Part shown: positions 33,487 to 52,379 of the stretch, piece after piece
Layout of the letters: each line of letters begins with the position of its first letter
Position numbering within the stretch: position 1 is the stretch's first letter
Source: an uncultured Saprospiraceae bacterium
Lineage (GTDB): Bacteria > Bacteroidota > Bacteroidia > Chitinophagales > Saprospiraceae
Reading direction: 5' to 3'
Assembly: GCA_964385675.1 (NCBI GenBank)
Contig: CAYLSF010000001.1
Location: 53,651 to 117,650, forward strand
Length of the DNA stretch: 64,000 bases
The notes under the pieces: model-generated
What the model was told of the DNA's origin: nothing
Seen by the model: only the letters and a program-made list of their open reading frames with translations
Databases searched by the model: none
Position numbers and translations under genes: made by a program

Positions 33487-33488
33487 AG

Positions 33489-33496: not shown

Positions 33497-33530
33497 CCTA
33501 TGTTATTATATGGTTTAAGTGGAGCAGAAA

Positions 33531-35498: not shown

Positions 35499-35530
35499 TA
35501 TTTTTATCCTTATGTTTGTGTATAAGAAGT

Positions 35531-35601
35531 ACGCTAGCCCCGAATCGCACGGAGAACTATTGGTTGGAAGCCAATTATTTTTCTAGTTAAACTACTAGCG
35601 C
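35531..35601 (-). tRNA. tRNA-Gly(UCC)-like gene with non-canonical T-loop
   Basis: Hand-folded 71-nt cloverleaf in an ORF-free, locally GC-rich gap. The acceptor stem is 7 bp with G1-U72 and the D stem is 4 bp. The anticodon stem ATTGG/CCAAT has loop CU-UCC-AA, and the T stem is CTCCG/CGGGG. T-loop is UGCGAUU (G55) and the D-loop lacks GG. No CCA is encoded. Confidence 0.55.
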
Positions 35602-36916: not shown

Positions 36917-36922
36917 GCATAT

Positions 36923-36930
36923 ATTATACA
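36923..36930 (-). promoter_or_regulatory. TGTATAAT -10-like element placing a transcription start at the 5' end of the tRNA-like element
   Basis: Minus strand reads TGTATAAT-ATATGC-T(36916). The cloverleaf begins 7 nt after the -10. Confidence 0.35.
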
Positions 36931-37535: not shown

Positions 37536-37757
37536 TTAACGTTTGATAAAAAATCTAATACTTTTAAGTATACTGTACGATACCAAGATAAGAATCGTAA
37601 CAGGGATATAAATTGGATATGCTAAAGTAGACAACAAAAGGTCTATGTCATTGGGGCTGCTTTTCACTAGTATCGGGAATAAATATCTGTTAAATAGAAT
37701 AGAAAATACTATGCCTATTAATAGGTAAACCGTTAGAAATATTATGCTATTAGCCAT
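37536..37757 (-). CDS. Small membrane protein
   Basis: 73 aa with two hydrophobic segments. Confidence 0.5.
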   Translation of the reverse strand: MANSIIFLTVYLLIGIVFSILFNRYLFPILVKSSPNDIDLLLSTLAYPIYIPVTILILVSYSILKSIRFFIKR

Positions 37758-38677
37758 TTAACCGCCTCTGTATTGTGCCATGCTTCTTCTGAGTAATATT
37801 TATTATAATAATCTTTAGCAGCCTGAGAACATAAAGCATAAAAATCAGAGTCTTGTTTTAATTCTCTAGCTATTTTTCTTGCTAAGACAAGGTTTCCTTG
37901 TTCTACTGTAGTATATGGATGTAGTTCCTTTTGAGTAGAAGAATTTTTATATCCAATACAAGGTATACCAAAATAAGCACAATTTAATTGAAAGGTGCCA
38001 GCGGCATACTCTCTCATCAAATGCACGCCATATTTAAATGCTGATAAAGTAGACATCCAATTTGACCAGTTTGCAAATGGTAAATATTGCACTTTTTTAT
38101 TAATTACTCGCTCATTATCATGTCTTCGGCCCATAGTTGGCGCCCAAACATTTTCTCCTAATTGAGACGCTATAACATACGAATCTGCTCCACCATACCA
38201 TCTAGTAAAATTTCCTCCTATAATGGGATCAGGTAATTGAAGCCTTGTCTCTTTAGGTATGGCATCTTCTATCATCAGTGACTGTAGATGTAAAACATTT
38301 TTTGTTGGCAATAGCCCTGCATAATAATTTATATCACTTTTATTATGGCATAGGAGAGCATCGGCCTGGGACAAAAGCTTTAAATATGTTTCTTGTTTAT
38401 CCGTTTCCCATTCATGCCAATAATTATTTGCTCCTTCTTGCATAAAAGCTAACTTATTACAGTTGTCTTTAATGCGAGCTACAACATCTACAATATTGTA
38501 ATTCCAGTTTTTAGGTAGAATTACTACCCCTGTAGTGTACGTATTGTCGTTAATTTTGCCAAGGTTTTGATGGTCTGCATTTAAACTGCATTGCCATGCA
38601 AATTCTGTGCGCATATTACAAAAAGTTCTAGCAACTTTTCCAAAATGCGTATTTTCCGAAAAGAAACAAATACTCAT
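37742..38677 (-). CDS. Hypothetical protein, last gene of the glycosylation operon (possible glycosyltransferase)
   Basis: 311 aa with a 4-nt overlap to the upstream gene. No clear motif. Confidence 0.45.
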   Translation of the reverse strand: MSICFFSENTHFGKVARTFCNMRTEFAWQCSLNADHQNLGKINDNTYTTGVVILPKNWNYNIVDVVARIKDNCNKLAFMQEGANNYWHEWETDKQETYLKLLSQADALLCHNKSDINYYAGLLPTKNVLHLQSLMIEDAIPKETRLQLPDPIIGGNFTRWYGGADSYVIASQLGENVWAPTMGRRHDNERVINKKVQYLPFANWSNWMSTLSAFKYGVHLMREYAAGTFQLNCAYFGIPCIGYKNSSTQKELHPYTTVEQGNLVLARKIARELKQDSDFYALCSQAAKDYYNKYYSEEAWHNTEAVKWLIA

Positions 38678-39339
38678 AATACTATATTAAATATATTTTT
38701 GCAGTGTTGTGATATATCTAAATCCATAGATTTTACTATCTTTTTATATAGATTTGGATTTTCCTGTTTTATTTCCAAAAATCTTGTATTAACATTATTA
38801 TCGATACGACCAAATGATGAGCCTTGTCCCTCTTTGCTTTTTGGTGGCGCGAATGTCCAAGGTATATGTTTTTTTAAATGCAATAAAGACTCTATTTGCT
38901 TGAGATAGTCTTTATCATATATTAACTTATTATATATAAGACATTTTTCTGGATACATTTCGTATAGTTTTATATATTCTTTCCAAACGTCAATAGCATC
39001 TCTGTTTCTTTCTTTGTTGTGTCTTTGTCTAGCGGAATCTATTCCCCTTTTTGATTTTAGTCTGGATGCAGCTATATTTGGCCAGTCTCTTAAAATAAAA
39101 AGGGTGTCTTTGTTTTGTAGTTCTTCTATTGACGGTTCGAAATCTTCGTAAGAAAATATTTCACATACAGGCTTTACTTTTGTATTTCCATATTTATGTT
39201 TGCTCCATATAAAAGTGGGGTTTGGGTATCCTATGCAATCATTATAATGGATCGTGCATTCAAAATGTTTTGCTATCCATTCTATAATAGCGTGATTTCC
39301 TGATCTTCTTAGGCCAAAAATTTTAAATGATTTCTGCAC
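38674..39339 (-). CDS. Hypothetical protein, weakly sulfotransferase-like
   Basis: N-terminal FGLRRSGNHAIIEW resembles a PAPS-binding 5'-PSB loop. This is weak evidence only. Confidence 0.3.
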   Translation of the reverse strand: MQKSFKIFGLRRSGNHAIIEWIAKHFECTIHYNDCIGYPNPTFIWSKHKYGNTKVKPVCEIFSYEDFEPSIEELQNKDTLFILRDWPNIAASRLKSKRGIDSARQRHNKERNRDAIDVWKEYIKLYEMYPEKCLIYNKLIYDKDYLKQIESLLHLKKHIPWTFAPPKSKEGQGSSFGRIDNNVNTRFLEIKQENPNLYKKIVKSMDLDISQHCKNIFNIVL

Positions 39340-40144
39340 AGGCTATACCTTCTTCGCCTCTGTATGAGTAATAAATAAACTTTTTATTATCTGTGTTTAA
39401 GATAAACGGATCTCTTATCTCTGTGTTCCCAATCCTGGCCCCCGGTCTACTAGGTTCACATCTTAATGCTACTTCAAATCCTTCAGGCTTCATAAAAATA
39501 CTACTTTTTTCGGGTGAATCTATATTGTTAAATTTTATAGATCTAATATGCTCTGGACAATCACCTATTCTTGTATAATACACTGTATCAGTTTTACTGT
39601 CATAGCATGCATGTCTCATATTTGGTAAGACATGTTTTTTTGATTTTCCAAAAAAATCACACAACATCCCCCCGATATTTTCATTCTTGTATAGAAGACA
39701 TGGTGAGCCTATTGATCTTGAGATATATCTAGCATAAAATTGAACTTGGGGAAACTCATAGTGATGTTCAAACTTACGCAAATCTTTTGTAATGTAGCAT
39801 CTGGTTTCCTGTCTACCTTTAGTCACGCCGTGTATCAGTACTGAAATGTCATTTGTTCCTACTATAACATCAGGACTAGCTACATGATCTTTTAATTCTG
39901 GTAATGTATCAACCTTTAATATTGTGTTTTGCGAAACTCGCCATCCATAATGAGGTTCATTTGAATAAGCGACCCTAATAGAGTCTCCTCTATGATGGGC
40001 AAAAAGCATAATATATCTACTGCGCCCAGGTAAAAAATTAGGTCTTTCAAAAACGCATGGACCGTTAATATTAGATGAGTCTATATTTTTTGGTATGCTA
40101 TTTGGCGTGATAACTGGCCCGTGTCTTTTAATGGTTGATGACAT
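39323..40144 (-). CDS. Hypothetical protein in glycosylation operon
   Basis: 273 aa. GPVITP..YIMLFAHH..IRVAYS is faintly reminiscent of beta-propeller glycoside hydrolases or phosphorylases. Confidence 0.4.
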   Translation of the reverse strand: MSSTIKRHGPVITPNSIPKNIDSSNINGPCVFERPNFLPGRSRYIMLFAHHRGDSIRVAYSNEPHYGWRVSQNTILKVDTLPELKDHVASPDVIVGTNDISVLIHGVTKGRQETRCYITKDLRKFEHHYEFPQVQFYARYISRSIGSPCLLYKNENIGGMLCDFFGKSKKHVLPNMRHACYDSKTDTVYYTRIGDCPEHIRSIKFNNIDSPEKSSIFMKPEGFEVALRCEPSRPGARIGNTEIRDPFILNTDNKKFIYYSYRGEEGIACAEII

Positions 40145-41087
40145 TATCTATAGTTGTAATTAATTGGAGGTAGTTGTTATATCCTCTATCTCGAATATTT
40201 TTTTCCTTGTCTATCACAGGATATATTGGCGCACCAGACAATTTTCTATAGTATGACTGTTCATCAAAATATCCTTCTCTAATCTCTTTTCCTGTAGTAG
40301 TATATATAATATTAGGCACTTGAAAATAACTACCCAGAATTCCTACCCCTCCAGCTATAGATATAAATGCAGAGCTTTTACTAAATACTCTTAGCTGTGA
40401 TTCATTATAAGAGCAGTCTGCATTATTAATAATATCTTTTAGTAAAAAGACTCCTGTAGTTTCTCTAGCCAGTTCCAAATCTGTTTGTTGTGATTTCGGA
40501 TCTCTGATGTGTAAATCATCTTTTAAAGTATCTTTTTCTCCTTCGTCGTTTGGAAAATCGGAGTTGATGGGACGATGATAAACAATATCATACCCCTTGC
40601 TTTTTAATAAGGTAAAAATATTTTTGAGAGCGCCATATCTAATAAATCCCGTTGGAGATCTTCCGTGTTCATAATTAAATCTATTTAGAATAGTTACAAA
40701 CTTGGTAGGGGCGTCAATAAACTTATCTTGATAATATTTTTTGTAGTTTGGTGGGCTCCATTTAGAATAGTCTAATACTCCATTTGCTTTAATTTGTTCA
40801 TCTTGTGAACAGTCTGAATAGTCTTTGTTAAACAATGACCAGCAATTATGATGTAACCAATTGTTTGGTAGTCTATCAAGGCCTGCTAGATTATTATTAT
40901 GCGTTCTGTGATTAAATTTTTCTTCAACATTATCCGCAAAAAAATAGAAAGGTTTCATATCATGGCATGTGATTACTTTATTTAATTGATTATTTTTATG
41001 TAGATAATGTACATATGGCGTCATTAAAACTAGTTCTATCCCAAACTCTGGATTACCGGAAATAGTCAATTTAGTTGAGGCAGACAT
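40128..41087 (-). CDS. Hypothetical protein in glycosylation operon
   Basis: 319-aa ORF with 17-nt overlaps on both sides. Confidence 0.45.
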   Translation of the reverse strand: MSASTKLTISGNPEFGIELVLMTPYVHYLHKNNQLNKVITCHDMKPFYFFADNVEEKFNHRTHNNNLAGLDRLPNNWLHHNCWSLFNKDYSDCSQDEQIKANGVLDYSKWSPPNYKKYYQDKFIDAPTKFVTILNRFNYEHGRSPTGFIRYGALKNIFTLLKSKGYDIVYHRPINSDFPNDEGEKDTLKDDLHIRDPKSQQTDLELARETTGVFLLKDIINNADCSYNESQLRVFSKSSAFISIAGGVGILGSYFQVPNIIYTTTGKEIREGYFDEQSYYRKLSGAPIYPVIDKEKNIRDRGYNNYLQLITTIDNVINH

Positions 41088-42009
41088 TTAAAATTTTATC
41101 TATTCTATTGGTGGTTTGGTGCGATGCTTTTGTTTCTAACAAAGATTTATGAGCTAGGTCTTTAGATATATCAGGATTAGACGCATAATATGCCGCTTTA
41201 GTAAGTACATCTTCTGTAGAATACCTATCATAATAAGCTATATTTTTAACGCTATTTGGCAGCTGTGGGGTTATATCGTTCATAACGCAACAGCCACATG
41301 CCATAGCTTCAAATAGTCGCATATCTCCTTCCCATGGCTCTGGATTGCAGTTAATCAAAATTTTAGTGTTTAGCAATAAACGATGATAGGGTTCACTTAA
41401 ACACTGTCTTGCTGACCTACCTCCTTGAGAAACTAAACCTATTTGTTTTTTGTATTGTTTTAAAAAATTGGATTGTTGTACAGCAAAAGCTATAGCGTTT
41501 CTTCGTGTGATTCTGGGGATAGGAGGAAATAATATAGAAATATCAATGGGTCGATTAGCCCAGTTTACTTCTTGAGCTATTTCTAAATCTGGGCGCACAC
41601 AATAGGGTAAATGATAGACTTGTCTGTTATAGGCTACGAGTTTATTTTCTACTAAGTCTGAAGTGCTTCTTTTGAAGTAAAACTTGGCGTTGTCTGGCAT
41701 TAACCTGATAGGATTATCGTCGTAGTCTATGATTGCAGATTTATCAGGATATAAAATTTGTGAAGTTTCTGCTCTAATATTTGCCCATAATTTTCTAGTA
41801 TTATAATGAGTAGACCAACACATTTTATTTCTAGTTGAAAATAAACATAAATCTGCTTCTTCTTGAGTTGGCACTTCTAGAGTTTCTTTATGTTTGTCTA
41901 TACTGTCTTGTATAATTTTGAAATCTTCACCATACAAATCAAAGTCTGGATCTATTTGTTTACATTGTTTGTAACATTCATCATTTTTATAAAGAAAAAT
42001 GCGTATCAT
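41071..42009 (-). CDS. Glycosyltransferase (GT1/CgeB-like C-terminal domain)
   Basis: RLFEAMACGCCVMND is typical of the GT-B donor-binding helix. Confidence 0.55.
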   Translation of the reverse strand: MIRIFLYKNDECYKQCKQIDPDFDLYGEDFKIIQDSIDKHKETLEVPTQEEADLCLFSTRNKMCWSTHYNTRKLWANIRAETSQILYPDKSAIIDYDDNPIRLMPDNAKFYFKRSTSDLVENKLVAYNRQVYHLPYCVRPDLEIAQEVNWANRPIDISILFPPIPRITRRNAIAFAVQQSNFLKQYKKQIGLVSQGGRSARQCLSEPYHRLLLNTKILINCNPEPWEGDMRLFEAMACGCCVMNDITPQLPNSVKNIAYYDRYSTEDVLTKAAYYASNPDISKDLAHKSLLETKASHQTTNRIDKILNVCLN

Positions 42010-42857
42010 ATAAGCTGTGCTATTTCTTCAATTGTGTATTGATCTACTTCATTACTAAAAGTTTTACCATCCATTGTTTCATGCATATTTTCTTCTGAGC
42101 TTAAATTGTTTATTATTACTGTGGGCTCAATATGCTCTTTTCTATATTTTTCAATTAATGCTTTGTTTAGATTGCCTAAGCTCATAGCTTTCATTTGTGG
42201 TACAATCGGCTTTGCATTCGTACCATTTTCAATAGCATTAAAAATTAAATCTATCGCTTCGTTAACAGGCCAAAAAAATCTAGTTGCATTAGGATTGTTC
42301 AAGATTAAAGGTTTGTTTCTCCTGATGCATTCTCTCCATTTGCAAAGAACAGATCCTGTGCTATATAAGACATTTCCATATCTTACAACTCGATACTTAG
42401 TATCTTGATTTATACTTTCATATTCTTGGAATAGTTTTTCCATTAGGTATTTACTAGATCCGTACACACCTTTAAGTTGCGCTGCCTTATCTGTAGAGAT
42501 TCCTACTACTAATTCACATTTATTTGATTTACTAGTTTCCAGTATGTTGATTGTGCCATTAATATTTGTTTGTATACATTGATAGGGATTAGACTCTGCT
42601 ATTCCTACATGCTTCATAGCCGCTAAATGAAATACTATATCTATATTTTGCATAGCCTTCTGAACGTAATAATAGTCTGCAATATCTCCTGGCAGTATAT
42701 TTATACTAGGAAATTGTTCTTTTAAGCTAACAAGATTTCCTTCATTTCTGGCTAGCACTGTTATTTTGTTATTATCGACTAATCTTTCGATTAAAGGCTT
42801 TCCTAAAAATCCTGATCCGCCAGTTATAAGTATATTTTTATTTTTAATTTGCATCAA
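42006..42857 (-). CDS. NAD(P)-dependent nucleotide-sugar 4,6-dehydratase/epimerase (CapD/PseB-like)
   Basis: Rossmann ILITGGSGFLG, the STDKA signature (ISTDKAAQ) and YGSSK (YxxxK). Confidence 0.75.
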   Translation of the reverse strand: MMQIKNKNILITGGSGFLGKPLIERLVDNNKITVLARNEGNLVSLKEQFPSINILPGDIADYYYVQKAMQNIDIVFHLAAMKHVGIAESNPYQCIQTNINGTINILETSKSNKCELVVGISTDKAAQLKGVYGSSKYLMEKLFQEYESINQDTKYRVVRYGNVLYSTGSVLCKWRECIRRNKPLILNNPNATRFFWPVNEAIDLIFNAIENGTNAKPIVPQMKAMSLGNLNKALIEKYRKEHIEPTVIINNLSSEENMHETMDGKTFSNEVDQYTIEEIAQLI

Positions 42858-43821
42858 AAACGTCTTTCCATCCTAGGGGCTTATAATTTGGATCAAATAA
42901 ATGTTGTAAATTTTTGTTTGAGTACTCGTTTGCTATTTTATACCATTGATGGCACGCTCTGAGTTTGCCTAAATCTGTTTTATCTTTGACTAACTCTTCA
43001 CCTAAAATATCTGATCTTTTATCAGGGTGTTTTCTATTATGAACTAGTAATAAATCTTTAAATAAATATTGATTTAAATTATGATGCCTACAAAGCATCA
43101 TAAATCCTGTGTCTTCTGACACAAAAAAGGCATAGTCTTTAGGCACATTAAGGCCGTTTTTGATTACGTCTGATGATATTACTAGGCCACAACCATTAAA
43201 CTGTGGAGTGTTCATCTTATAATAGGAATATTGATAATCTTTATTCCATTCTTCCATTTCGTCATACGACATTTTATACCGAAGGCTCCAGTAGTTTTTG
43301 GTATCGCCCTCTATAAATGGTTTTCCTTGGAATTTTGAGAATGTTAAAACATCCCAAGATTTGTCCCACATAACAGCGCCTCCCCAAAACGCAATAAAAT
43401 TGGGGTCTATATCATATTTTTCATGATAAAGTTTTGCAATAGATATAAATGTTTGACTGGGGACAACCATGTCTGTCTCCCCCCACATCAATACATCGGA
43501 TAGCTCAGAATATTTTTGGTTAAAATCGTACCTATAGTCTGCTACTGTATAGATATCGTCTATATTTACTCTGTAATTTACATCAAGACTGTAGTTTAAA
43601 ACGTATTGATGCATCAAACTTAGAAGTTTTGTCGATATTTCTCCTGGGCTTTTAGAACATTTTTCTAAGTCTTGATTCATATTGAAGACAAAATCAATTA
43701 TGACTTTCCCATCATAATTATTTATTGCCTTAGATAAGGATGATACATACTCTTCAAAAATGTTATGTTCGTACCACTGAACTAAACATCCAATAGCAAT
43801 CGTGGGAAATTTATTTTGCAT
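42844..43821 (-). CDS. Putative GT-A-fold glycosyltransferase
   Basis: N-terminal beta-strand TIAIGCLVQWYE and the acidic motif WGETDMVVP. Confidence 0.4.
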   Translation of the reverse strand: MQNKFPTIAIGCLVQWYEHNIFEEYVSSLSKAINNYDGKVIIDFVFNMNQDLEKCSKSPGEISTKLLSLMHQYVLNYSLDVNYRVNIDDIYTVADYRYDFNQKYSELSDVLMWGETDMVVPSQTFISIAKLYHEKYDIDPNFIAFWGGAVMWDKSWDVLTFSKFQGKPFIEGDTKNYWSLRYKMSYDEMEEWNKDYQYSYYKMNTPQFNGCGLVISSDVIKNGLNVPKDYAFFVSEDTGFMMLCRHHNLNQYLFKDLLLVHNRKHPDKRSDILGEELVKDKTDLGKLRACHQWYKIANEYSNKNLQHLFDPNYKPLGWKDVFDAN

Positions 43822-44542
43822 AATGTTGATATAATTTTTCCATCCAATATTTTGGAGAAGGTTTTACTCCACAGTTAAAATGAAATATATCTCCCATATC
43901 TGACCAAAACAAATCCTCGTCATTCAGACAGTTTCTACGTGGAAGATCCTGTATATTATAGATATATGGCAATCTATTTACTGTGATGTTTCTATGTTTT
44001 AGAAATAAATTAAAGATGGTCTGATCTTGTCCCATCCCCAGTTTATCCGTTAAGTTATAAATTTTATCTTTATTATTACGGACGAATTGTAAAAAATCTT
44101 GGAGAGTTGGACTGATAATTTTATCAACTATTATTAGACCAGTATTGAAATAGTTGTGGTAGTCTAGTGAAATACTTTTAAAAATATTGTGGGCCAAAGA
44201 GCAGTTTTCTATAGTCCTGCATACCCATTCTAAGGAGCCGAAATTTGGCACAGCTGATATAGTTTTATTTTGGCATATAACTTGTTCTAAATCTGAGTTT
44301 GGTCTTATAATAGTATCAGCATCTACTACACACAAAGTTTTATACTTTTTAAATAGAGATTCTAGATCGTATTTTAGAAATTGTGGTCTCAAATCATTAT
44401 TTTTGGTAATTCTTATATAGTCTAGCGCTGGTTTATCTTTAACATAATTCTCAAAAGACTTTGTGTGTATTTCATACCCCTGCAGCACGCTTCTTTCTGA
44501 TTCTATCTGCACACTGACTATTGCATTTTTAGCTTCTTTCAC
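43811..44542 (-). CDS. Glycosyltransferase family 8-like
   Basis: VVDADTII (DxD), FNTGLIIVD and GQDQTIFN, the GT8 motif order. Confidence 0.6.
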   Translation of the reverse strand: MKEAKNAIVSVQIESERSVLQGYEIHTKSFENYVKDKPALDYIRITKNNDLRPQFLKYDLESLFKKYKTLCVVDADTIIRPNSDLEQVICQNKTISAVPNFGSLEWVCRTIENCSLAHNIFKSISLDYHNYFNTGLIIVDKIISPTLQDFLQFVRNNKDKIYNLTDKLGMGQDQTIFNLFLKHRNITVNRLPYIYNIQDLPRRNCLNDEDLFWSDMGDIFHFNCGVKPSPKYWMEKLYQHYAK

Positions 44543-45290
44543 TATAGACGCCCCATATTTGTTTCATGATAGATTCTCTTTGATCTACCGGCATACCGGT
44601 GAAGTGCCAAATTTTTCCAGTTTTTAGAAAATACGGTTCTTGCGAACCTTGTTGAAAATTAGCTTGATTCAACCCTAAAGAAAAAATTCCAAACTGATTA
44701 TACATATGAGGCATATATAGTAATTTTATTTGATGTTTTTGCAAGATAAAATTGATCGGAGTTTGGTCTATTCCAGTATTTGGCGTGTCCCATTGGTCTA
44801 GGTCTTTTTTATTGTTGAGATAAAATTCAAAAAGTAAGTTGCATAAAGAGCTACCCGACTTTCGGTCCATTAATAATATACCAGAATTGACATAATTTTT
44901 ATACTGTAAATTGATATCTGGGAAAAACTTTTGGTATGCTTTTACAGAGTTGTTGAGCCAAGCTAAATTGTTGTGATCTTCAACGCCATAAATACCTTGA
45001 TGTGTAAACGTTTCAAAAATGTTTTCACATCGCCAAGATGGCATTGTATCAGAGTCAACGAGCAAAATTCGATCGCAATTATTGCTGACATAATTCCAAA
45101 TCTGAGATTTCATCCATTTAGGATGATTGATTTTAGGATTATTGATATTGTCTATCAGAATAAAGTCTAAATTATATTTTTTGCAATATTGTTTCCAAGA
45201 TCTTTCAGCATATAGACCCCATGTTGAATGTTGATATTTTGATTTGTCGCTATCTATACAAATCATCACAACGGCATTATTCGATTCCAT
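44529..45290 (-). CDS. Glycosyltransferase family 8-like (paralog of 43811..44542)
   Basis: LVDSDTMP, VNSGILLMD and GIDQTPIN. Confidence 0.6.
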   Translation of the reverse strand: MESNNAVVMICIDSDKSKYQHSTWGLYAERSWKQYCKKYNLDFILIDNINNPKINHPKWMKSQIWNYVSNNCDRILLVDSDTMPSWRCENIFETFTHQGIYGVEDHNNLAWLNNSVKAYQKFFPDINLQYKNYVNSGILLMDRKSGSSLCNLLFEFYLNNKKDLDQWDTPNTGIDQTPINFILQKHQIKLLYMPHMYNQFGIFSLGLNQANFQQGSQEPYFLKTGKIWHFTGMPVDQRESIMKQIWGVYSERS

Positions 45291-46128
45291 CTTCTATAAA
45301 TTTTCTGTTGTCACTTATAATATTGTTAACTTGCCAATATAATTTATCTGGCACATTTTGAAATGCGCCTAACCAGAGATTGTTTTTGTGCATTTTCTCA
45401 TAAGATTCTTCATCTCTAATGTGTTGCCCGTATTTTCCTATATTTTGAACTACAGATACCGCTGGAAACAGGGTCTTTTTACCTTTTGAAAAGTATTTGT
45501 GGAATGGCCATACGAAAGACCCAGGGCCTTTATCGATTCTGTTAATCTCGTTTAGCCAATCTTCTCCCTTGCAAGCATAAGTACGACCTTTTGGAGTAAT
45601 ATAATCTACTCCAAACATACCTATTTTATTAATCTCTTTATATGTTTCTTTAGTCATACCAAAGCCGCCAGTTCCATCAAACCATTCTTTGGCAACTAAA
45701 CCTGTAGTATTGTTGTATGTTTCATAATGACCTGGGTGACATGGCCTATGAAATGTACATGCTGCAAATAGATTATTGTCGTTAAGTCTAGGTAATACTT
45801 GTTGAAAGTAATCAAGAGTATATTTAGATGGCAATGTATCATCTTCTAGATGAATAGCATAGTCATACCCCTTGCTAAAAGTATAGTCTAAGCAGAATTT
45901 AGTGTTAACAAAGCACCCGTGTGTATGGCTATGTCCTAATATATCATAAAATTTAAGCCCGCTGAGTTTTGCTGCTTCTAAATTTTGTTGTTGTATAATA
46001 GTTTCGGCGCCGTCGCACACCAATACTATATCATAGTTGTCTACATTATTACACTTTTTAAGGGCCTTTAATACCTTTAGCAAATAGATAGGCCTTTTAT
46101 ATGCTTTTATAGTGATCAAAGCTTTCAT
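45277..46128 (-). CDS. Putative GT-A-fold glycosyltransferase (EDD motif)
   Basis: ALITIKAYKRP..L..L.. N-terminal strand and IHLEDDTLPS. Confidence 0.45.
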   Translation of the reverse strand: MKALITIKAYKRPIYLLKVLKALKKCNNVDNYDIVLVCDGAETIIQQQNLEAAKLSGLKFYDILGHSHTHGCFVNTKFCLDYTFSKGYDYAIHLEDDTLPSKYTLDYFQQVLPRLNDNNLFAACTFHRPCHPGHYETYNNTTGLVAKEWFDGTGGFGMTKETYKEINKIGMFGVDYITPKGRTYACKGEDWLNEINRIDKGPGSFVWPFHKYFSKGKKTLFPAVSVVQNIGKYGQHIRDEESYEKMHKNNLWLGAFQNVPDKLYWQVNNIISDNRKFIEDGIE

Positions 46129-46781
46129 TTGGTAGCCTCTATTTCTTTTTCTAAGGCGTCTATAGCATCTTGCTGCCGAGAGTCAAAATATCCCTTGGCT
46201 CTAAAATTTCCGGTCCAGTTTTCTTTTAGATGTAGTATTTGATATTTATCGGGGTTTAATATCCCGGCTCTAAATCCATTTGGAACTTCATGACACCCAG
46301 GAGACGCATTCAAATATGGCGAAGTATTTACAAATCTAGTATCATCATTAAGAAAACACATATGATAGTTATCTGGATGTACAAAATGTCTATTAAATAG
46401 ATTGTATCTTAGAACACCGGCATATGAACCCTCTGGATTTACTACATCATATTCCCAGTCAAATGTTTTTAGATGGTCAGCCGTATGAGGCATTAAGAGT
46501 TCATCAGCATCAATAAACATTCTACATTTTGTCTCACACCTATCTAAAATTTGGTTTTTAGCCCCGGCAAAATCATTGTTAAGATTCAAATTAAAGCTAA
46601 AAAACTGAGATTTTTGTATTAAACTAAGTAACTTTGTATATAGATTGTGTGCTTTTGGGCCATCTTCATCTATTCCAACGCAGATTCTAGATGCTATACC
46701 ATCATGGTTTTCACACCAGCCTTTGATAAATTTTTCGTCCGAAGGACTTAGAAGCAAGCATATTGTAAGGTCTTTATTCAT
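46125..46781 (-). CDS. Putative GT2-like glycosyltransferase
   Basis: LTICLLLSP N-terminal strand and FIDADELL (DxD). Confidence 0.45.
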   Translation of the reverse strand: MNKDLTICLLLSPSDEKFIKGWCENHDGIASRICVGIDEDGPKAHNLYTKLLSLIQKSQFFSFNLNLNNDFAGAKNQILDRCETKCRMFIDADELLMPHTADHLKTFDWEYDVVNPEGSYAGVLRYNLFNRHFVHPDNYHMCFLNDDTRFVNTSPYLNASPGCHEVPNGFRAGILNPDKYQILHLKENWTGNFRAKGYFDSRQQDAIDALEKEIEATK

Positions 46782-47176
46782 AAAAACATTTTGGTTAGAA
46801 TTATATCTTTAATAGCTGCTTGAGCGCTTATAATTATACTTTGACGTTGAACATTAGAAACATAAAGCATGCTCGATACTCTACAGTATTTAAGATATTT
46901 TCTATTTTTATGTATTCGGAAATCTCTTATTAGAGTATACAGTGTAGAGTTTGTCTTAAAGCATTTTTCTATTAGTTTGTTATATAATAAAACAATATCT
47001 AAGTCGCATTTCAAAAAAATAGCTATTTGATGCTTTGAGAAAGCTAATGGAGGTACGCTTTCTATAGTTTCGTAAACTGTGTTTGATATTGTTTTAGTTT
47101 TTATAAGGCCGTGCGGTGGACATCCTACGTAATGATATCCACCATTAGACCAAAAAATCTTGCCAGATTGATTCAT
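46778..47176 (-). CDS. Hypothetical protein in glycosylation operon
   Basis: I prefer the ATG at 47176 (ATGA overlap with the upstream stop) to the track start at 47203. Confidence 0.45.
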   Translation of the reverse strand: MNQSGKIFWSNGGYHYVGCPPHGLIKTKTISNTVYETIESVPPLAFSKHQIAIFLKCDLDIVLLYNKLIEKCFKTNSTLYTLIRDFRIHKNRKYLKYCRVSSMLYVSNVQRQSIIISAQAAIKDIILTKMFL

Positions 47177-47706
47177 AGTTTTTGTTGATCCAAAAATTTC
47201 CATCTGTTCAATCTCGGCTCTATTCCCATATTAACATTAATAATGTATCTTTCAACTTCATCCCAAGAGCCAAAAAACATTTCGTGTTTTAGCATTCCCC
47301 ATAGAAAATTAGGAACGCCTTCTTTGCCTTGTTCACAGCAAATAATAACAGGCTTTCTTTGCATAGCTGCATGTGCTATTTCAATAATAGAACCGCACAT
47401 AAAAATATCGTGGTTGATATATGCAACTACAAAGCTAGATAAGTCCACAGCTCTTAGGTCTCTTTGTACAACTTCTTTACCTATTCTTGTAGCCTTATCC
47501 CAGTCTGCCGCTTCTTTTGCAATATTAATTTTAGAAACAGCTACACTATCGTCTTCATTAGAAAAAGCAGAATCTGTTGGATCTATTACAGATATGCCTT
47601 CATTTCTTAAGAAAGGGGCTAGATTTTTTCTCCAAGTCTTTCCATCATCTTTGGCCTGATCAATAGGCCCAGCTAAGTAACAAATATGATTTGATAAAAG
47701 TCCCAA
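47173..47706 (-). CDS. Nucleoside 2-deoxyribosyltransferase-like protein
   Basis: ICYLAGPID..W N-terminus and GSIIEIAHAAMQRKPVI resemble the NDT/Rcl-family pattern. Confidence 0.5.
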   Translation of the reverse strand: MGLLSNHICYLAGPIDQAKDDGKTWRKNLAPFLRNEGISVIDPTDSAFSNEDDSVAVSKINIAKEAADWDKATRIGKEVVQRDLRAVDLSSFVVAYINHDIFMCGSIIEIAHAAMQRKPVIICCEQGKEGVPNFLWGMLKHEMFFGSWDEVERYIINVNMGIEPRLNRWKFLDQQKL

Positions 47707-47718
47707 AATAATAAGTCC

Positions 47719-48231
47719 TTATGGGTTTGCAGATACTATTCCTATTTCAAATGTTGATCCGGCTCCACCATCATTAATTCTAACATATCTATTCGAGCTA
47801 TTTATAACCCAGCCGCTTAGAGGATTAGAAAATGCCATTATACCGCTTGGATAGATGGGTATAACGGTTGATTGAGCATATCCTGTTTGCCCTTGAGCTA
47901 TAGTATTGTCTAGCTCTATAAACTGATTAGCTCCTGTACTAGTATTTTCAACAGAGAGAAATTTAAGCCATCCTCCATCAAGAGATAAGCTGATATTATT
48001 ACCAAATAAGTTTCTTGACAGATTTTGAAAATCAATAGTATCTGATCCGCCCGGAGCTAAAAGTCCAGTACCGTAAAATACCTTGTTAGCTTGACTAAGG
48101 CCTGTGCCATCAGTTAGCTGGGTCGTTCTGCTCATTGTCACAGAATCTCTAGCTTGATTATCGCCAAGTCCGGTATCAGTTTGCGTCCAATTAAGCTCAA
48201 CCCGAAGGGAGCTGGTTGTTGTAATAGCCAT
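47719..48231 (-). CDS. Ser/Thr/Gly-rich putative virion structural protein
   Basis: 170 aa, Cys-free, with composition like 24054..25637. No SD sequence. A TGTATAATA motif ends 5 nt before the ATG. Confidence 0.5.
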   Translation of the reverse strand: MAITTTSSLRVELNWTQTDTGLGDNQARDSVTMSRTTQLTDGTGLSQANKVFYGTGLLAPGGSDTIDFQNLSRNLFGNNISLSLDGGWLKFLSVENTSTGANQFIELDNTIAQGQTGYAQSTVIPIYPSGIMAFSNPLSGWVINSSNRYVRINDGGAGSTFEIGIVSANP

Positions 48232-48236
48232 ACACT

Positions 48237-48244
48237 ATTATACA
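48237..48244 (-). promoter_or_regulatory. TGTATAAT -10-like element (possible leaderless transcript)
   Basis: Minus strand reads GGTGTATAATAGTGTATG. The predicted start falls on or next to the A of the ATG at 48231. Confidence 0.35.
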
Positions 48245-48261
48245 CCAGAACACCGCTTATT

Positions 48262-48465
48262 TTACAGTGTATTTTCTTCTTCTTTATAGTTATCAATAGC
48301 ATTTACTAATGCATCTTCAAAAGATTTCCCAATCATTTGCCTCGGAGTACGAAGTACAAAAGTGTTTTTATCGCTCGGATTTTTAGGACTTATAATCAAG
48401 GCGTATTTCTTTAGTACCTTGATAAGGTCTTCTGTCAAGTCGACATTAAAATCTTGGGTCTCCAT
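48262..48465 (-). CDS. Hypothetical protein
   Basis: 67-aa ORF overlapping the pnkp stop by 20 nt. Confidence 0.45.
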   Translation of the reverse strand: METQDFNVDLTEDLIKVLKKYALIISPKNPSDKNTFVLRTPRQMIGKSFEDALVNAIDNYKEEENTL

Positions 48466-50899
48466 TAGTCCCTCTTTGTTTGACCTGTAAAAATTTGCCT
48501 AGATTTTCGACAGATGGATCTTCTAAGATATCTTTAGCTAGTTTAAATTGAGCAATAGAATCTGACAATTTATATCTAATCTTTTTTCTTGACATTAGCT
48601 TGTCGAGTTTAGCCGGATTAGTATAATCAGGACCATATACTATTCTTAAATATTCTGGATTTCGTACTTTTATGTAGGGCGCTATATCTAAATTATAAAC
48701 CTTATCAGGCTTGACCACGCACCCTTCTATTTTATTAGATTTTAAAAAGGCCTGGAAATCTGATAATAGCTCTTCAGAAATATTATTTAAGTCTAATAAT
48801 ATTGACTTAGATTTATTAATTTTACTAAACATGTCGCTATTTGACTCATTCCAATAGGTCTTGGTAGACCCATCAGTATAAACATCTTTGAGTATAGCGA
48901 ACGGCTCTATTCTAGCCGGCTCATCCGATCCATAAATATCTACCTGTTTTTTGAAAAGTTCTAGATAGGCATTTTGTGATTCTACACTTATATAGTTCTT
49001 GTGTATATTTTTAATACCTTTGGACAAGCTATATTTGTGATGTCCATATTTTTCAATATATTCTGTTTTTGTTAGGTTGTCAAAATCTTTATTTGTAGAA
49101 ATAGATTCTTCAAGCTTATTGAGTACTTTATCTAGATTTCCTTCGGCTCTTAATCTTGAATGTTCTGAGGCTGCATGATAGTATCCGTAAAAAGACTTAT
49201 CTATTAGCCCTTCTCCGAGCAATCTCCATGGAAGGGCCTCGCAATCTAAAATCGTAAATAAGCCACCCTGACTAAAGAAGTCTTGTCTTTCTTCAATTAG
49301 TCTGGCATATTCTTCTTTTAATATTTCATTAAGCTCTTCTTTAAATCTATATCCATTTTTTGTTACTCCATAACACTTCTCGGGATCTGAATATAGATAA
49401 ATTTGCGCTCGCGAGCCCATAAACTTTGGCTGTAAGCACACTTGTTCTATTCCATTCTTCCTATAATAATTAAAGGCCCAATCTAGACTTTCTAGTTCTG
49501 TGTCGGTTTTATCAGCGGGACACATAGTAGGAGATAAATAGCAAATATTTTGCTTTGCCATTCTTGAGGCTAGCTTAAGATTATCTTCGTCTATTTGAAT
49601 ATCTCTAGTAAAAGATAAGGTCTGAAGCCTATCGTCACAATATGCGTTCTTTGAATTAACTTTCAGGAAGTGATGCCGGCCTTTATCAAAATATACTGCG
49701 GTTAGACAGTTACCATATACCGCGCCAGTGTCTATACCTATATTTGAACTGTTAACAAAAGCTCTTTGCAACGCTATATGACCCCAAATATGTTTCTTAT
49801 GAGATTTATTTTTTTCTCTATCAACAAACCACAACTTGTCTTCTAAAGTTTCTTTTTCTTCTAAACGATATCTATAATTTCTTTGATTTCTTAGAGCTTC
49901 TCCAGAGTTCTTTTTTAGAAACTTTGTTTGGCAAGGACTGTGAGTAATAATAGCTTCTTTTGTTTCAACCCAATGGTAAGACAGTTTTAATAGATCTAAA
50001 AATTTTTTTTGTAGCTCTGGGCTCTCAGCTAAAAATACAGCGTCATTAAAATATTTATTGAGAATGTCTTGAGGGACTTGAGTATCTTTTTTAGTCCAAA
50101 AAACTTCTGCAAAATGATCGTGATTACCTCGTACTAGTCTAATTAAGTCTAGATTTTCTTTAATAAGATTGATTGTTTTTTCAGCTGAGTCTTTTTCTTT
50201 GTTCTTATCAAAGATGTCTCCTATTAAAATAATATCTTGAAATTTCTTTGCTCTAAGCTGATTAAGCATTTCTTCTAATTCTCTATAGCAGCCATGTATA
50301 TCTCCAACTACTGCATATTTTGAATTATTGTCTAGCCTTAAACCATTCTTAGGTTCTTCTTCTCTTATTATCTCATGAGAGATTTCGGCATGAGACTTAA
50401 TATTATATACTTGTGCAAAATTTTTGTAAGAGTTTATACTCTTAAGGGTCGTTTCCTTAAATTTTCTAACATGATTCTTAATAATAAAATTATTTCTATC
50501 GCTATAGTAATCTTTTGTGTTCTTGTAATTAAAGGTAACAAAGCACAAATTGTAATGATGCTTTTTAGCTAATGTGGTTATTTTTTCATGGAAGGAAGGA
50601 CTGAGAGCAGTGCTGTCTACAACAACTATGTCTTGATTAGCTGGGTAACTGATAACTGATTCTAGTTCAGTCCAGAGCATATTAAAAGCTTGATCTGATA
50701 CTGCAAAAAGTTCTGAATCATGCTTGTCTAAATCCGATCCTATTATCATCCGCCTCAGATTATCGGAGGATATATAGTGAACTGTTTCAAATAGTCCCGA
50801 CGCAATCGGTAAGAAATTATTCTCGCACCAATAGCTTTTTCCACAATTACTTGGGCCAACTGTAACTACAATAGTATTCTTTTTAATTTTTAATGACAT
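48446..50899 (-). CDS. pnkp: Polynucleotide kinase-phosphatase-ligase (bacterial Pnkp-type RNA repair enzyme)
   Basis: Three modules in Pnkp order. The P-loop kinase has GPSNCGKS. The metallophosphatase has VVGDIHGC, GDIFDK and RGNHD. The adenylyltransferase/ligase has LQPKFMGSRAQIY, similar to the KxMGSR lysine motif. 817 aa. Confidence 0.8.
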   Translation of the reverse strand: MSLKIKKNTIVVTVGPSNCGKSYWCENNFLPIASGLFETVHYISSDNLRRMIIGSDLDKHDSELFAVSDQAFNMLWTELESVISYPANQDIVVVDSTALSPSFHEKITTLAKKHHYNLCFVTFNYKNTKDYYSDRNNFIIKNHVRKFKETTLKSINSYKNFAQVYNIKSHAEISHEIIREEEPKNGLRLDNNSKYAVVGDIHGCYRELEEMLNQLRAKKFQDIILIGDIFDKNKEKDSAEKTINLIKENLDLIRLVRGNHDHFAEVFWTKKDTQVPQDILNKYFNDAVFLAESPELQKKFLDLLKLSYHWVETKEAIITHSPCQTKFLKKNSGEALRNQRNYRYRLEEKETLEDKLWFVDREKNKSHKKHIWGHIALQRAFVNSSNIGIDTGAVYGNCLTAVYFDKGRHHFLKVNSKNAYCDDRLQTLSFTRDIQIDEDNLKLASRMAKQNICYLSPTMCPADKTDTELESLDWAFNYYRKNGIEQVCLQPKFMGSRAQIYLYSDPEKCYGVTKNGYRFKEELNEILKEEYARLIEERQDFFSQGGLFTILDCEALPWRLLGEGLIDKSFYGYYHAASEHSRLRAEGNLDKVLNKLEESISTNKDFDNLTKTEYIEKYGHHKYSLSKGIKNIHKNYISVESQNAYLELFKKQVDIYGSDEPARIEPFAILKDVYTDGSTKTYWNESNSDMFSKINKSKSILLDLNNISEELLSDFQAFLKSNKIEGCVVKPDKVYNLDIAPYIKVRNPEYLRIVYGPDYTNPAKLDKLMSRKKIRYKLSDSIAQFKLAKDILEDPSVENLGKFLQVKQRGTNGDPRF

Positions 50900-50944: not shown

Positions 50945-51211
50945 TTATTGTTGCAAAAATTGTAGTTTTTCTATAATAGAATTTTTCAACCCCAACTCAT
51001 TAAATAGCGGTATATATCTAGTAATGATGCTTTCTGTATTAAAACCTGCCTGTTCTCTACCGGATAGAATACCGCAAATTTCATAGCGTACAGCTTTAAG
51101 AGTGTTATAGATTAATATTGCATATGCCACATGTTTAGTCTCTAAAAAATATTTAGATATTGTTAATACAAACGCCCCATGTTGTAGGTATGTTATTAAC
51201 TGTATCGCCAA
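50945..51211 (-). CDS. Hypothetical protein (doubtful start)
   Basis: 88-aa ORF between hen1 and pnkp with a 59-nt overlap onto the hen1 3' end. Confidence 0.3.
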   Translation of the reverse strand: MAIQLITYLQHGAFVLTISKYFLETKHVAYAILIYNTLKAVRYEICGILSGREQAGFNTESIITRYIPLFNELGLKNSIIEKLQFLQQ

Positions 51212-52379
51212 TACCTGTTATTGATATTTCTTTATTTTGGCCAAAAATATTTATTATCTGATTAGATAGTTGCTTTAGCGTAAATTCAAACTTATGATCT
51301 TCGTGTCTTAGCTCTATTCCATAGAATGGATTAAATTCTTTGTTTGGCGTAGTAATCAATATTTGGGAGGGTTTTAAACTAAGTAGCCCCTTAAAAATCT
51401 CGGCATGCTTGTCGAGTTCTATATGTTCAATTACTTCAGACATAATGATCGTACAGCCATTTACTGTCTGTTTATCTATTTCGTCAATTGAACTTACTAC
51501 ACTTGCGTTATCTATGCCGTTGTTTTCGATTTTTTTAGAACATTTAATTTGGCAGTCTGGATCTATATCAACACAAATATAATTTTTATGATTCTTTGCT
51601 AGGCGTGTAAGGTATCTGCCCTCGCCAGAGCCAAAATCTATGATAGTGCTATCTTCTGGAATTAAGGAGTTAATGTAGTCGAATCTTGATTCCCAATTAT
51701 TTTTGGGCGACATGTTTAGTTCATATTTCTCACTATTATTGATAAGCTCTTGATATTCGTAGAACTTTTTTTCGCTGTTTCTTAATAGGTTTTGTTTGAA
51801 TAGATACCTGATGAAATATGGCGCGTCAATATCAGATATTAATTGGAAGTATTTTTTGTTTATATTGTCGTCTTTGTATATAGCATCTTGATCTAACGCC
51901 ATATAGAAAGCTACTACCTGAACAAACTTTAAGAAATATTCCAGAGTATGTTTATACGAGCGAATTTTAATACATCTGTAATTAGTCCAATTTTCTGAAG
52001 GGTAATCTTGAATAATAAATTCATGGAAATATTTTTTAATACTTTGGAATGTAGAGTCTCGAACATTAACGTTACTAATTTCCAGTGAGATATCACTAAT
52101 ATCATCATATTTTGTATTTAGACCATCCAACATACCGTCTATCATTTTGTTTATAATAAATGGGTTGTTAAATTTGTTAACGTCTAAATACTCAAAATCT
52201 GAGCCTCCAAATGAACTTTCATCATGACCTTCCATAAATGAAATGTAATATGTTTGTGGGTCTGTAAACCAACCAATCAAATTACCTTTCCTACAGTCTA
52301 TAATACGTGGTCCGCTATCGGGGTTCTTGTTTATAATATAGGAAAAATCTAAATTGTCATTTTTGAGTTTGATGATCAT
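51153..52379 (-). CDS. hen1: Hen1-type RNA 3'-terminal 2'-O-methyltransferase
   Basis: SAM motif IIDFGSGEGRY, then MSEVIEHIE and LRHEDHKFEFT (Hen1 metal/RNA-binding motifs). The N-terminal domain of about 230 aa sits where the Pnkp-ligase-activating domain is expected. Confidence 0.8.
   Translation of the reverse strand: MIIKLKNDNLDFSYIINKNPDSGPRIIDCRKGNLIGWFTDPQTYYISFMEGHDESSFGGSDFEYLDVNKFNNPFIINKMIDGMLDGLNTKYDDISDISLEISNVNVRDSTFQSIKKYFHEFIIQDYPSENWTNYRCIKIRSYKHTLEYFLKFVQVVAFYMALDQDAIYKDDNINKKYFQLISDIDAPYFIRYLFKQNLLRNSEKKFYEYQELINNSEKYELNMSPKNNWESRFDYINSLIPEDSTIIDFGSGEGRYLTRLAKNHKNYICVDIDPDCQIKCSKKIENNGIDNASVVSSIDEIDKQTVNGCTIIMSEVIEHIELDKHAEIFKGLLSLKPSQILITTPNKEFNPFYGIELRHEDHKFEFTLKQLSNQIINIFGQNKEISITGIGDTVNNIPTTWGVCINNI

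Follow-up and report, generated by a model that had tools for sequence, protein, structure and literature searches.

A predicted thirteen-gene glycosylation operon without intergenic gaps beside a jelly-roll protein gene in an uncultured marine-biofilm phage: a candidate system for virion glycosylation

Glycosyltransferase islands and virion glycosylation are already known in bacteriophages. A precedent for the latter is the glycosylation of capsid and tail-tube proteins in mycobacteriophages (Freeman et al., 2023, as summarised in PMC12619734). Here, a 13-gene predicted glycosylation operon of an uncultured phage is described, together with the gene directly upstream, which encodes a jelly-roll protein of 170 amino acids (aa). 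Both lie in a stretch of 64,000 nucleotides, the whole of which is called the window, at positions 29,572-93,571 of the 142,144-bp contig ERZ23498940 scaffold_54 from a marine-biofilm metagenome. The gene string of the operon was found in several samples.

The mycobacteriophage system resembles the present locus in that the phage genes for glycosyltransferases map apart from the core structural block, their products act in the cytoplasm as soluble enzymes, and the gene set varies among relatives (PMC12619734). The proposed target is likewise a virion surface protein (PMC12619734). The mycobacteriophage system has 2-4 genes, whereas 13-14 are present here, including one for a sugar-nucleotide dehydratase (PMC12619734). 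Its acceptors are the C-terminal tails of major capsid or tail-tube proteins, whereas the candidate acceptor here is a separate jelly-roll head protein. Furthermore, the glycosyltransferase families differ (PMC12619734), and the phage described here is marine with a G+C content of 34%.

Other described systems share single features with the operon. SunS, ThuS and GmaR are soluble glycosyltransferases of the GT-A fold which place the first sugar directly on a polypeptide; the 218-aa GT2-type enzyme of the operon is likewise a predicted soluble GT-A protein, but it lacks the domains, tetratricopeptide or other, with which SunS and GmaR bind their acceptors. Giant viruses (e.g., chlorovirus Vp54 and the mimivirus fibrils) use their own sugar-nucleotide enzymes and several glycosyltransferases, encoded in clade-specific clusters, independently of host membrane machinery. 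These are viruses of eukaryotes with unrelated capsid proteins. The gene clusters for sugar hypermodification of DNA (the alpha- and beta-GT of T4, the 5-hydroxymethylcytosine (5hmC) glycans of Pyle et al., RB69/DLP3 and YerA41) resemble it in having soluble, phage-specific GT-A, GT8-like and GT-B enzymes near nucleotide-metabolism genes, sometimes with sugar-nucleotide genes. However, these clusters hold or adjoin a ThyA homologue, or a methyltransferase plus 5mYOX, which makes the hydroxyl acceptor, whereas neither a ThyA homologue nor a hydroxymethylase was found here by tblastn with E. coli ThyA, either in the window plus 10 kb on each side (the 82 kb that were annotated) or in 145 comparison loci, 1.9 Mb in total, which are labelled with numbers of the form L001. 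Marine cyanomyovirus islands (S-SCSM2R, P-SSM2) are also found in large marine phages and combine many glycosyltransferases and nucleoside-diphosphate-sugar enzymes in accessory regions with NAD-salvage genes elsewhere in the genome (PMC12801897). Their genes are scattered or loosely clustered and host cell-wall-like, whereas those described here are joined without gaps in one operon, which has a phage-restricted core and a head-module gene at its front (PMC12801897). What is new in the present locus is the size and gap-free layout of the operon, a phage-specific core of a nucleoside 2-deoxyribosyltransferase-like (Ndt-like) protein, a SunS-like GT2 and a GnT-I-like enzyme with swappable sugar modules in many uncultured aquatic phages, and the link to an unannotated family of head-module jelly-roll proteins.

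The initial annotation of the window had described 13 gap-free genes with start-to-stop overlaps, and this layout is borne out. The 13 consecutive minus-strand open reading frames (ORFs) occupy 47706 to 37742, and each overlaps the next, by 4 (or 31), 4, 4, 14, 14, 11, 14/11, 4, 17, 17, 17 and 4 nucleotides (nt) in order. At the first junction, 31 nt are shared if the longest ORF is taken and 4 nt if the gene at 46778 begins at the ATG at 47176; the other overlaps are all within 4-17 nt. In the rest of the window, overlaps occur at 26 of 74 junctions (35%) and the longest run of them is four, which gives a chance of such packing of 0.35^13, or about 1e-6. Thus, the tight packing is not due to chance. 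The gene string is listed below in the order in which it is read.

48237..48244, minus strand: extended -10-like motif TGTATAAT, read from the sequence, 5 nt upstream of the ATG of the 170-aa gene
47719..48231, minus strand: 170-aa jelly-roll protein of PHROG 22694 (full-length PHROG match, structure model, synteny in other phages)
47173..47706, minus strand: Ndt-like protein, 177 aa, with a TTG start and an AAGGA Shine-Dalgarno sequence (PF15891, E=1e-11)
46778..47203, minus strand: 141-aa protein (132 aa if it starts at 47176), no family match
46125..46781, minus strand: GT2-type GT-A glycosyltransferase, 218 aa, DADE motif (Pfam GT2, E=0.004)
45277..46128, minus strand: GnT-I/POMGnT1-like (GT13-like) GT-A glycosyltransferase, HLEDD motif (family profile against PDB: POMGnT1, E=4.4e-6; GnT-I, E=0.04)
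44529..45290, minus strand: GT8-type glycosyltransferase, VDSDT motif (BLASTP paralogy to 43811..44542 with 27% identity, E=6e-15; weak Mannosyl_trans3 match, E=0.01)
43811..44542, minus strand: GT8 glycosyltransferase, VDADT motif (PF01501, E=9.2e-6, 25.9 bits against a cut-off of 24.3)
42844..43821, minus strand: 325-aa protein, no Pfam, PHROG, NCBIfam or PDB match
42006..42857, minus strand: 4,6-dehydratase of the short-chain dehydrogenase/reductase type (Polysacc_synt_2), PseB/FnlA/CapD-like, 282-283 aa (PF02719, E=2.6e-59, 201.3 against 20.2 bits)
41071..42009, minus strand: GT-B glycosyltransferase, FEAMACG motif (PF13524 Glyco_trans_1_2, E=1e-12)
40128..41087, minus strand: 319-aa protein, no significant match
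39323..40144, minus strand: 273-aa protein, only a chance-level GH32N match (E=0.099)
38674..39339, minus strand: 221-aa protein, no sulfotransferase family match at E<=0.1
37742..38677, minus strand: 311-aa protein, no PDB or Pfam match; a GT-B-like C-terminal motif by eye only
37536..37757, minus strand: possible fourteenth member, a 73-aa ORF that overlaps the last operon gene by 16 nt, no family match

No membrane segment was predicted in any of the 13 operon proteins. In addition, Pfam, NCBIfam and PHROGs scans of these proteins recovered no phosphoglycosyltransferase initiating enzyme, no flippase (Wzx) or ABC transporter, no polymerase and no ligase. The operon does not match an O-antigen or capsule-type locus dependent on undecaprenyl phosphate, the families of the initiating transferase, Wzx/ABC transporter and Wzy/ligase being absent from the Pfam, NCBIfam and PHROG matches. 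The 73-aa ORF may be a fourteenth operon member; its strongly hydrophobic N-terminal stretch and two hydrophobic helices, assigned by eye, make it the only membrane ORF in the gene string.

The 170-aa gene ends 12 nt ahead of the first operon gene. It had been credited with a promoter-like motif of its own, and the motif is present, but promoter, terminator and motif scans did not rise above chance, promoter-like sites being no commoner in the region than in shuffled sequences. Given a -10-like motif only 5 nt from the ATG and the lack of a Shine-Dalgarno sequence, the mRNA of this gene may be leaderless. The extended -10-like motif GTATAATA also occurs on the minus strand in spacers upstream of several genes (8705..8745, 23980..24053, 32359..32405, 33487..33547, 36921..36930 and 48232..48261), without statistical enrichment over the whole window. 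At 36921 and 48237 it lies so near the ATG that the transcripts would be leaderless.

The name of glycosylation operon is largely supported, since there is statistical support for five predicted glycosyltransferases and a sugar dehydratase. The initial annotation had proposed at least six glycosyltransferases and had set hidden Markov model (HMM) searches as the check on which the assignments would stand or fall. Five assignments are supported; a sixth is not, the 325-, 319- and 311-aa proteins having no family match. The two GT-A enzymes recognised earlier by their DADE and EDD motifs correspond to the GT2-like and GT13-like proteins. When the GT2 family profile was compared with PDB, it reached SunS (E=6.6e-6), GmaR (E=2.9e-4) and ThuS (E=5e-3), and the 218-aa protein is a candidate for the initiating transferase. 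Its orthologues share 37-46% identity in L011, L015 and L016 and 30% in L075. The product of 45277..46128 has no direct Pfam match; its relatives reach Pfam GNT-I (PF03071) at 27.0 bits, against a cut-off of 25.4, and at 22.7 bits. The HLEDD motif aligns with LEED of POMGnT1, and the protein is best called GT13-like. The earlier recognition of two GT8 paralogues with DxD motifs also stands: one exceeds the Pfam cut-off and has an orthologue in L011 (35% identity), and the other qualifies through paralogy only. The GT-B enzyme with the FEAMACG motif was correctly recognised as well, as its Glyco_trans_1_2 match attests.

Among the remaining operon genes, the CapD/PseB-type 4,6-dehydratase of the earlier reading carries the STDKA and YGSSK (YxxxK) motifs and belongs to Polysacc_synt_2. 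It falls below the cut-off of the TIGR03589 PseB equivalog (E=2.5e-49, 168 bits against 407.75), and its C-terminus is shorter than that of PseB. Its PseB/FnlA/CapD-like family suggests uridine-diphosphate N-acetylhexosamine (UDP-HexNAc) as the type of substrate. A full pseudaminic acid pathway (PseB, C, H, G, I, F) was considered and rejected: only the PseB-like dehydratase was found, and the aminotransferase, acetyltransferase, hydrolase, synthase and CMP-transferase were not detected. The gene at 38674..39339 had been called weakly sulfotransferase-like, a label that is withdrawn here, as the protein matches neither PF00685 nor PF13469 at E<=0.1 and has no similarity to a true sulfotransferase encoded in L075. 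Single-sequence PDB searches of four unassigned operon proteins gave no match, nor did family profiles of the 311-aa and 325-aa proteins against PDB, and profile-profile comparison of the unassigned families with the operon's own glycosyltransferases was negative. Orthologues of the 325-aa protein are encoded within the glycosylation clusters of L015 (34% identity) and L011, and those of the 311-aa protein adjoin GT13-like or GT2 genes in L073 and L075 (31-33% identity). A gene of similar size to that of the 141-aa protein occupies the same position in L015, without detectable sequence similarity.

The first operon gene had been read as nucleoside-deoxyribosyltransferase-like, and this assignment is confirmed by a PF15891 score of 45.6 bits against a cut-off of 30; the PF05014 match (E=2.7e-6) lies just below threshold, at 27.9 against 28.8 bits. 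The Glu in its GSIIEIAHA stretch is kept in three aligned orthologues. A very weak likeness to a cytidine monophosphate (CMP) N-glycosidase (4jen, E=0.73) is not significant. The Ndt-like gene is the conserved first gene of the glycosylation core, and its orthologues adjoin GT13-like genes in L015, L016, L075, L061/62, L064, L067, L127 and L130. A literature search for Ndt-like genes linked with phage glycosyltransferases found no relevant publication.

The initial annotation had also pointed to the 170-aa protein as rich in Ser, Thr and Gly, free of Cys and virion-like. The composition is as described: 22% Ser+Thr, 12% Gly, no Cys and few charged residues. A full HMMER scan (a representative search) yielded 221 clusters of full-length homologues of about 170 aa. 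Residues 3-168 of the 170 match PHROG 22694 (E=4e-6), as do 74 of 91 family members; this PHROG has no annotated function. An AlphaFold2 model computed with 90 homologues is an all-beta jelly roll with a predicted local distance difference test (pLDDT) score of 96.6, whereas the single-sequence model reaches a pLDDT of 31. Among solved folds, the nearest are phage capsid accessory proteins, weakly matched; the matches include the capsid chain H of cyanophage Pam1, the cement protein of KHP40, the turret of HFTV1 and small jelly-roll coat proteins, with template-modelling (TM) scores of about 0.3-0.52. The best matches among predicted structures are uncharacterised phage proteins (TM 0.76 and 0.81).

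Cultured members of the family were found with the family consensus, and not with the 170-aa protein itself. They are gp9 of Streptomyces phage Hiyaa and proteins of Microcystis phage Mae-JY04 and Bradyrhizobium phage ppBeUSDA76-1, all matching the family HMM at E values of 1e-33 to 1e-40. In these three unrelated phages, the member follows the major capsid protein and directly precedes the gene for the head-tail adaptor or other genes of the neck and tail. This slot is the usual one for decoration, cement and head-completion proteins. The 170-aa protein is therefore likely to be a capsid decoration or cement-like protein, as judged from its model and the position of its relatives. The term virion-like is thus upheld by the jelly-roll fold and by the head-module synteny in three cultured phages, but the gene of this phage lies in a non-structural region. 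In Hiyaa (L146, 6950..8785), the jelly-roll gene gp9 is followed, within the head module, by an annotated methyltransferase gene, gp10, an order which hints that the family may stand beside modifying enzymes in other phages too.

Two tandem minus-strand genes at 24054..25658 had been taken for similar paralogues of the 170-aa gene. Their products, of 263 aa and about 252-259 aa, share 41% identity and are, in sequence comparisons, unrelated to the 170-aa protein, so that they were rejected as its relatives. Together with it, they are the top three of 73 ORFs by Ser+Thr content, their own 24-26% being the highest in the window. Neither has a family match, and they share a conserved C-terminal block, RTVMTASGIRAGNWNEYSGSW. 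A 174-aa Ser/Thr-rich ORF of L061 was also compared as a possible hidden jelly-roll homologue, with a negative outcome.

In other uncultured phages, a core of Ndt-like, GT2 and GT13-like genes recurs with differing sugar-pathway genes. On distantly related contigs, the jelly-roll gene follows the conserved block found in the window (dCMP deaminase, HATPase_c_3, 171 aa, about 360 aa, DUF2201_N and about 205 aa). A GT13-like homologue adjoins the jelly-roll gene in L011, L012 and L013, in varying orders, and L011 also has orthologues of the GT2, the GT8 and the 325-aa gene. Core-bearing contigs L015, L016, L075 and L073 have no jelly-roll homologue in the sequence examined. The gene orders and sugar-pathway partners are as follows.

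L015, core order: Ndt-like, 144 aa, GT13-like, GT2; partners: CMP-sugar synthetase with HMGL-like domain, methyltransferase, MptE-like, GT4, GT2
L016, core order: Ndt-like, 88 aa, GT2, GT13-like
L075, core order: Ndt-like, two GnT-I-like genes, 311-aa orthologue, GT2; partners: GDP-mannose 4,6-dehydratase, DegT, GT10, sulfotransferase, O-methyltransferases
L073, core: 311-aa orthologue, GT13-like
L014, partners: heptose-like pathway with DegT and epimerases
L061 and L067, partners: GT25, phosphomannomutase, radical-SAM enzyme, O-methyltransferases

More distant GT13-like genes are also accompanied by an Ndt-like gene (L061/62, L064, L067, L127 and L130). The GT13-like family is almost restricted to phages, with 55 loci in IMG/VR and 69 in metagenomes against four weak matches in 185,579 genomes, one per bacterial or archaeal species. 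The 55 IMG/VR homologues fall into 15 clusters at 60% identity. The largest of these (38 loci) has a fixed order of portal, unknown gene, major head protein, 731-aa glycosyltransferase, GT13-like and tape-measure-like genes. The immediate neighbours of the GT13-like gene in L054 are tail-fibre-like and virion structural genes, and 2 kb separate it from the portal gene in L060. The remaining clusters are found among further glycosyltransferases or near a ribonucleotide reductase (RNR) gene.

These observations are best explained by cytoplasmic glycosylation of a virion head protein by the operon, a reading to which a probability of roughly one half is given. It is preferred because the enzymes are soluble, lipid-carrier machinery is missing, the core is phage-restricted, structural-module contexts occur elsewhere, the GT2 and GT13-like enzymes have protein-type affinities and a head-module gene stands at the front of the string. 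The best solved relatives of the GT2 (SunS, GmaR and ThuS) glycosylate proteins or peptides, and POMGnT1 and GnT-I, which the next enzyme resembles, extend protein-linked glycans. In addition, the 170-aa gene adjoins the operon and could be co-transcribed with it.

The following acceptor, order of steps, sugars and biological role are what we infer for this system. The PseB/CapD-type dehydratase would convert UDP-HexNAc of the host to a 4-keto-6-deoxy sugar nucleotide, a step proposed because of its enzyme family. At least five soluble glycosyltransferases, with the SunS/GmaR-like GT2 as initiator and the GnT-I-like GT-A, two GT8 and the GT-B enzymes among them, would then assemble a hetero-oligosaccharide on a phage protein in the cytoplasm. 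The likeliest acceptor would be the Ser/Thr-rich jelly-roll protein encoded at the head of the gene string, which, once glycosylated, would coat the capsid surface. Relatives would exchange the sugar-pathway part of the cassette and so give rise to capsid glycan 'serotypes'; the variation of sugar-pathway genes between relatives is as expected of an exposed, diversifying glycan.

Several observations weigh against glycosylation of a head protein. The operon is located among replication and nucleotide-metabolism genes rather than structural genes, and the sole promoter-like element, of sigma-70 type, gives no hint of late expression. The 170-aa protein matches the folds of cement proteins only weakly (TM 0.3-0.5), and the GT2 resembles SunS and GmaR only over a segment of about 60-100 residues that surrounds the DxD motif. 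Protein glycosylation offers no evident function for the Ndt-like gene that is conserved at the start of the core. Moreover, L009 and L010 have the jelly-roll gene without any glycosylation gene within 10 kb, and the glycosyltransferase core is found without the jelly-roll gene in L014, L016 and L075 as well as in all distant loci. Since each occurs alone, their pairing is not obligatory, and their adjacency may be inherited synteny among close relatives.

An unlikely, though not negligible, alternative is that the operon remodels the host envelope. Its soluble glycosyltransferases would extend a lipid-linked intermediate of the host (lipid A-core, an undecaprenyl-pyrophosphate-linked glycan or teichoic acid) or a surface protein such as flagellin or the S-layer, which would exclude superinfection or keep progeny from being trapped. 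Dehydratases of the PseB/CapD type are typical of O-antigen, capsule and flagellin-glycan pathways, and relatives of the operon have GT25, heptose-like pathway and CMP-sugar genes. The GT8 family includes WaaJ and WaaO, transferases of the lipopolysaccharide core which are peripheral and have no membrane segments; enzymes of this type can use lipid-linked acceptors without being membrane proteins. The small hydrophobic ORF at the operon end would also fit, and marine cyanomyoviruses with up to 13 glycosyltransferases are usually read in this way (PMC12801897). However, the operon encodes no enzyme that would initiate synthesis on a carrier lipid, and neither a flippase, a polymerase nor a ligase. 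The families of its conserved core are specific to phages and do not represent copied host genes, and its G+C content equals that of the rest of the phage (about 34% across the window, operon included). Small phages also carry members of the same glycosyltransferase family inside their head and tail modules. Serotype conversion in its classical form belongs to prophages, whereas no lysogeny genes were found in the 82 kb examined.

A glycan on DNA or nucleotides, in place of a protein, is a serious, though unlikely, alternative. Attached to a base in the phage DNA, an oligosaccharide would block restriction and other nucleases, with the Ndt-like enzyme acting in nucleotide or base chemistry. 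This would account for a nucleotide-metabolising fold as the conserved first core gene and for the place of the operon among dCMP deaminase, ThyX, RNR, dNMP kinase and DNA polymerase III genes, and every operon enzyme is soluble. Phage GT-A, GT8-like and GT-B enzymes add mono- to trisaccharides to 5hmC (bioRxiv 10.1101/2023.12.21.572611), poly-arabinosylated 5-hydroxycytosine (5hoC) is found in RB69 and DLP3 (PMC13326640), and the 145-kb phage YerA41 has an oligosaccharide-like modification of about 1 kDa on thymidine (PMC9023294). Known clusters, however, usually keep the base-activating enzyme beside the glycosyltransferases, and besides the ThyA homologue not found in the 82 kb or the 145 loci, Pfam and NCBIfam scans, run with no dedicated 5mYOX model, gave no methyltransferase or dioxygenase family among the operon genes. 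ThyX and dCMP deaminase indicate ordinary dTMP synthesis, and 13 genes exceed any DNA-glycan cluster in the literature examined. The nearest solved relatives of the GT2 act on proteins, and the GT13-like gene of another lineage lies between the major head protein and tail genes.

A more speculative proposal, to which low odds are given, is that the Ndt-like protein, the SunS-like GT2 and the GnT-I-like GT-A form a phage-specific system, widespread in aquatic phages, in which the Ndt-like enzyme would provide an N-glycosidic or (deoxy)ribosyl linkage or a base exchange. Nucleic acid or the capsid protein would then serve as the anchor for the oligosaccharide, by an undescribed route that needs no hydroxymethyl-pyrimidine precursor, and interchangeable sugar cassettes would again give glycan 'serotypes'. 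Highly improbable is a small-molecule pathway in which the Ndt-like enzyme frees a nucleobase or sugar phosphate in the manner of BlsM and MilB, CMP hydrolases from the biosynthesis of hexosyl-nucleoside antibiotics, and the glycosyltransferases build a soluble glycoconjugate for conflict or signalling: the tight, recurrent linkage of the Ndt-like gene to glycosyltransferases, its very weak CMP N-glycosidase resemblance and the presence in the same phage of a module with IMPDH-like, phosphoesterase, YAcAr-SLOG and GT4-conflict genes, whose IMPDH and GT4 pair recurs in L061, would suit it, but the CMP-glycosidase similarity lacks significance, at least five glycosyltransferases are far above any known nucleoside pathway, the tailoring enzymes usual in such pathways were not detected, and the structural-module contexts of GT13-like genes do not fit.

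The module just mentioned (27985..31438, minus strand) comprises an IMPDH/GMP-reductase-like gene (30461..31438), a 119-aa gene, a metallophosphoesterase gene, a YAcAr/SLOG gene (29064..29411) and a GT4 gene (27985..29067) that also matches 'GT4-conflict'. The GT4 gene had been noted in the initial annotation; it is confirmed, and it belongs to this module, which is separate from the operon and looks nucleotide-centred rather than a part of it. In L061 (12861..15057), the IMPDH and GT4 pair recurs beside Ndt-like and glycosyltransferase genes. Just outside the window, at 16833..18470 of L072, a 545-aa protein with a faint Glycos_transf_1 match is encoded directly after the phage sigma-factor gene, and it is possibly another glycosyltransferase of the same phage.

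In the wider neighbourhood, the minus strand holds 73 of the 76 window ORFs of at least 100 aa. The annotated 82 kb contain genes of the replication, nucleotide and auxiliary classes only, and no virion gene was recognised among them.

Replication and sigma genes, 82 kb: split DNA polymerase III alpha, DnaB, primase, RecA-like, SSB, sigma factor
Nucleotide genes, 82 kb: RNR, ThyX, dCMP deaminase, dNMP kinase, with inteins in both RNR and PhoH
Auxiliary genes, 82 kb: NAMPT, phosphoribosyl pyrophosphate (PRPP) synthetase, Hen1 and PNKP RNA-repair pair

No close cultured phage was found: searches of cultured phages with the whole region and with the 170-aa, GT-B, GT13-like and GT2 proteins gave no match, and single-protein scans of IMG/VR were likewise without a match. 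Directly upstream of the 170-aa gene lies a bacterial-type RNA-repair pair, a Hen1-like methyltransferase (51153..52379, minus strand) and a full-length PNKP of 817 aa with kinase, phosphatase and ligase domains (48446..50899, minus strand), which probably counters tRNA-cleaving defences. The pair also precedes the jelly-roll gene in L013, as does a PNKP fragment in L012. Further upstream, a block of five minus-strand genes (52357..57870) encodes HATPase_c_3 (678 aa), 171-aa, 361-aa, DUF2201_N (419 aa) and 203-aa proteins, the last with a weak Gad2 match; the L016 orthologue of the 361-aa protein has weak AAA matches. This block is syntenic in L009, L013 and L016, always upstream of the jelly-roll or glycosylation region.

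An NAD-salvage pair (60904..63197, minus strand), as in phages that counter NAD-depleting defences, consists of NAMPT (481 aa) and a PRPP-synthetase-like protein (281 aa). Inteins or homing endonucleases were observed on the minus strand in PhoH (9411..11078, LAGLIDADG), in the 1116-aa RNR (14142..17492) and in a 729-aa protein (20446..22635, Hint and Intein_splicing), and a Hint domain is also present in the DNA polymerase III finger gene just beyond the window (L072). A single tRNA-Gly(TCC) gene (35529..35601, minus strand) lies in a region of short ORFs downstream of the operon.

In the literature examined, mycobacteriophages are the only phages for which virion glycosylation has been demonstrated. 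If glycosylation of the head protein is true, a much larger, modular and largely phage-specific cassette in uncultured marine and freshwater phages would target a capsid accessory protein, whereas under the DNA-glycan alternative the operon would encode a DNA-sugar pathway without the usual base-activating enzyme. The locus provides as handles a candidate acceptor family (PHROG 22694), a marker glycosyltransferase family which is near-absent from cellular genomes, and the unexplained link of the latter to Ndt-like genes. If the head-protein reading holds, capsid glycans would be a widespread, diversifying trait, with a bearing on phage stability, adsorption to biofilm matrix or mucus, grazing, immune recognition and phage engineering.

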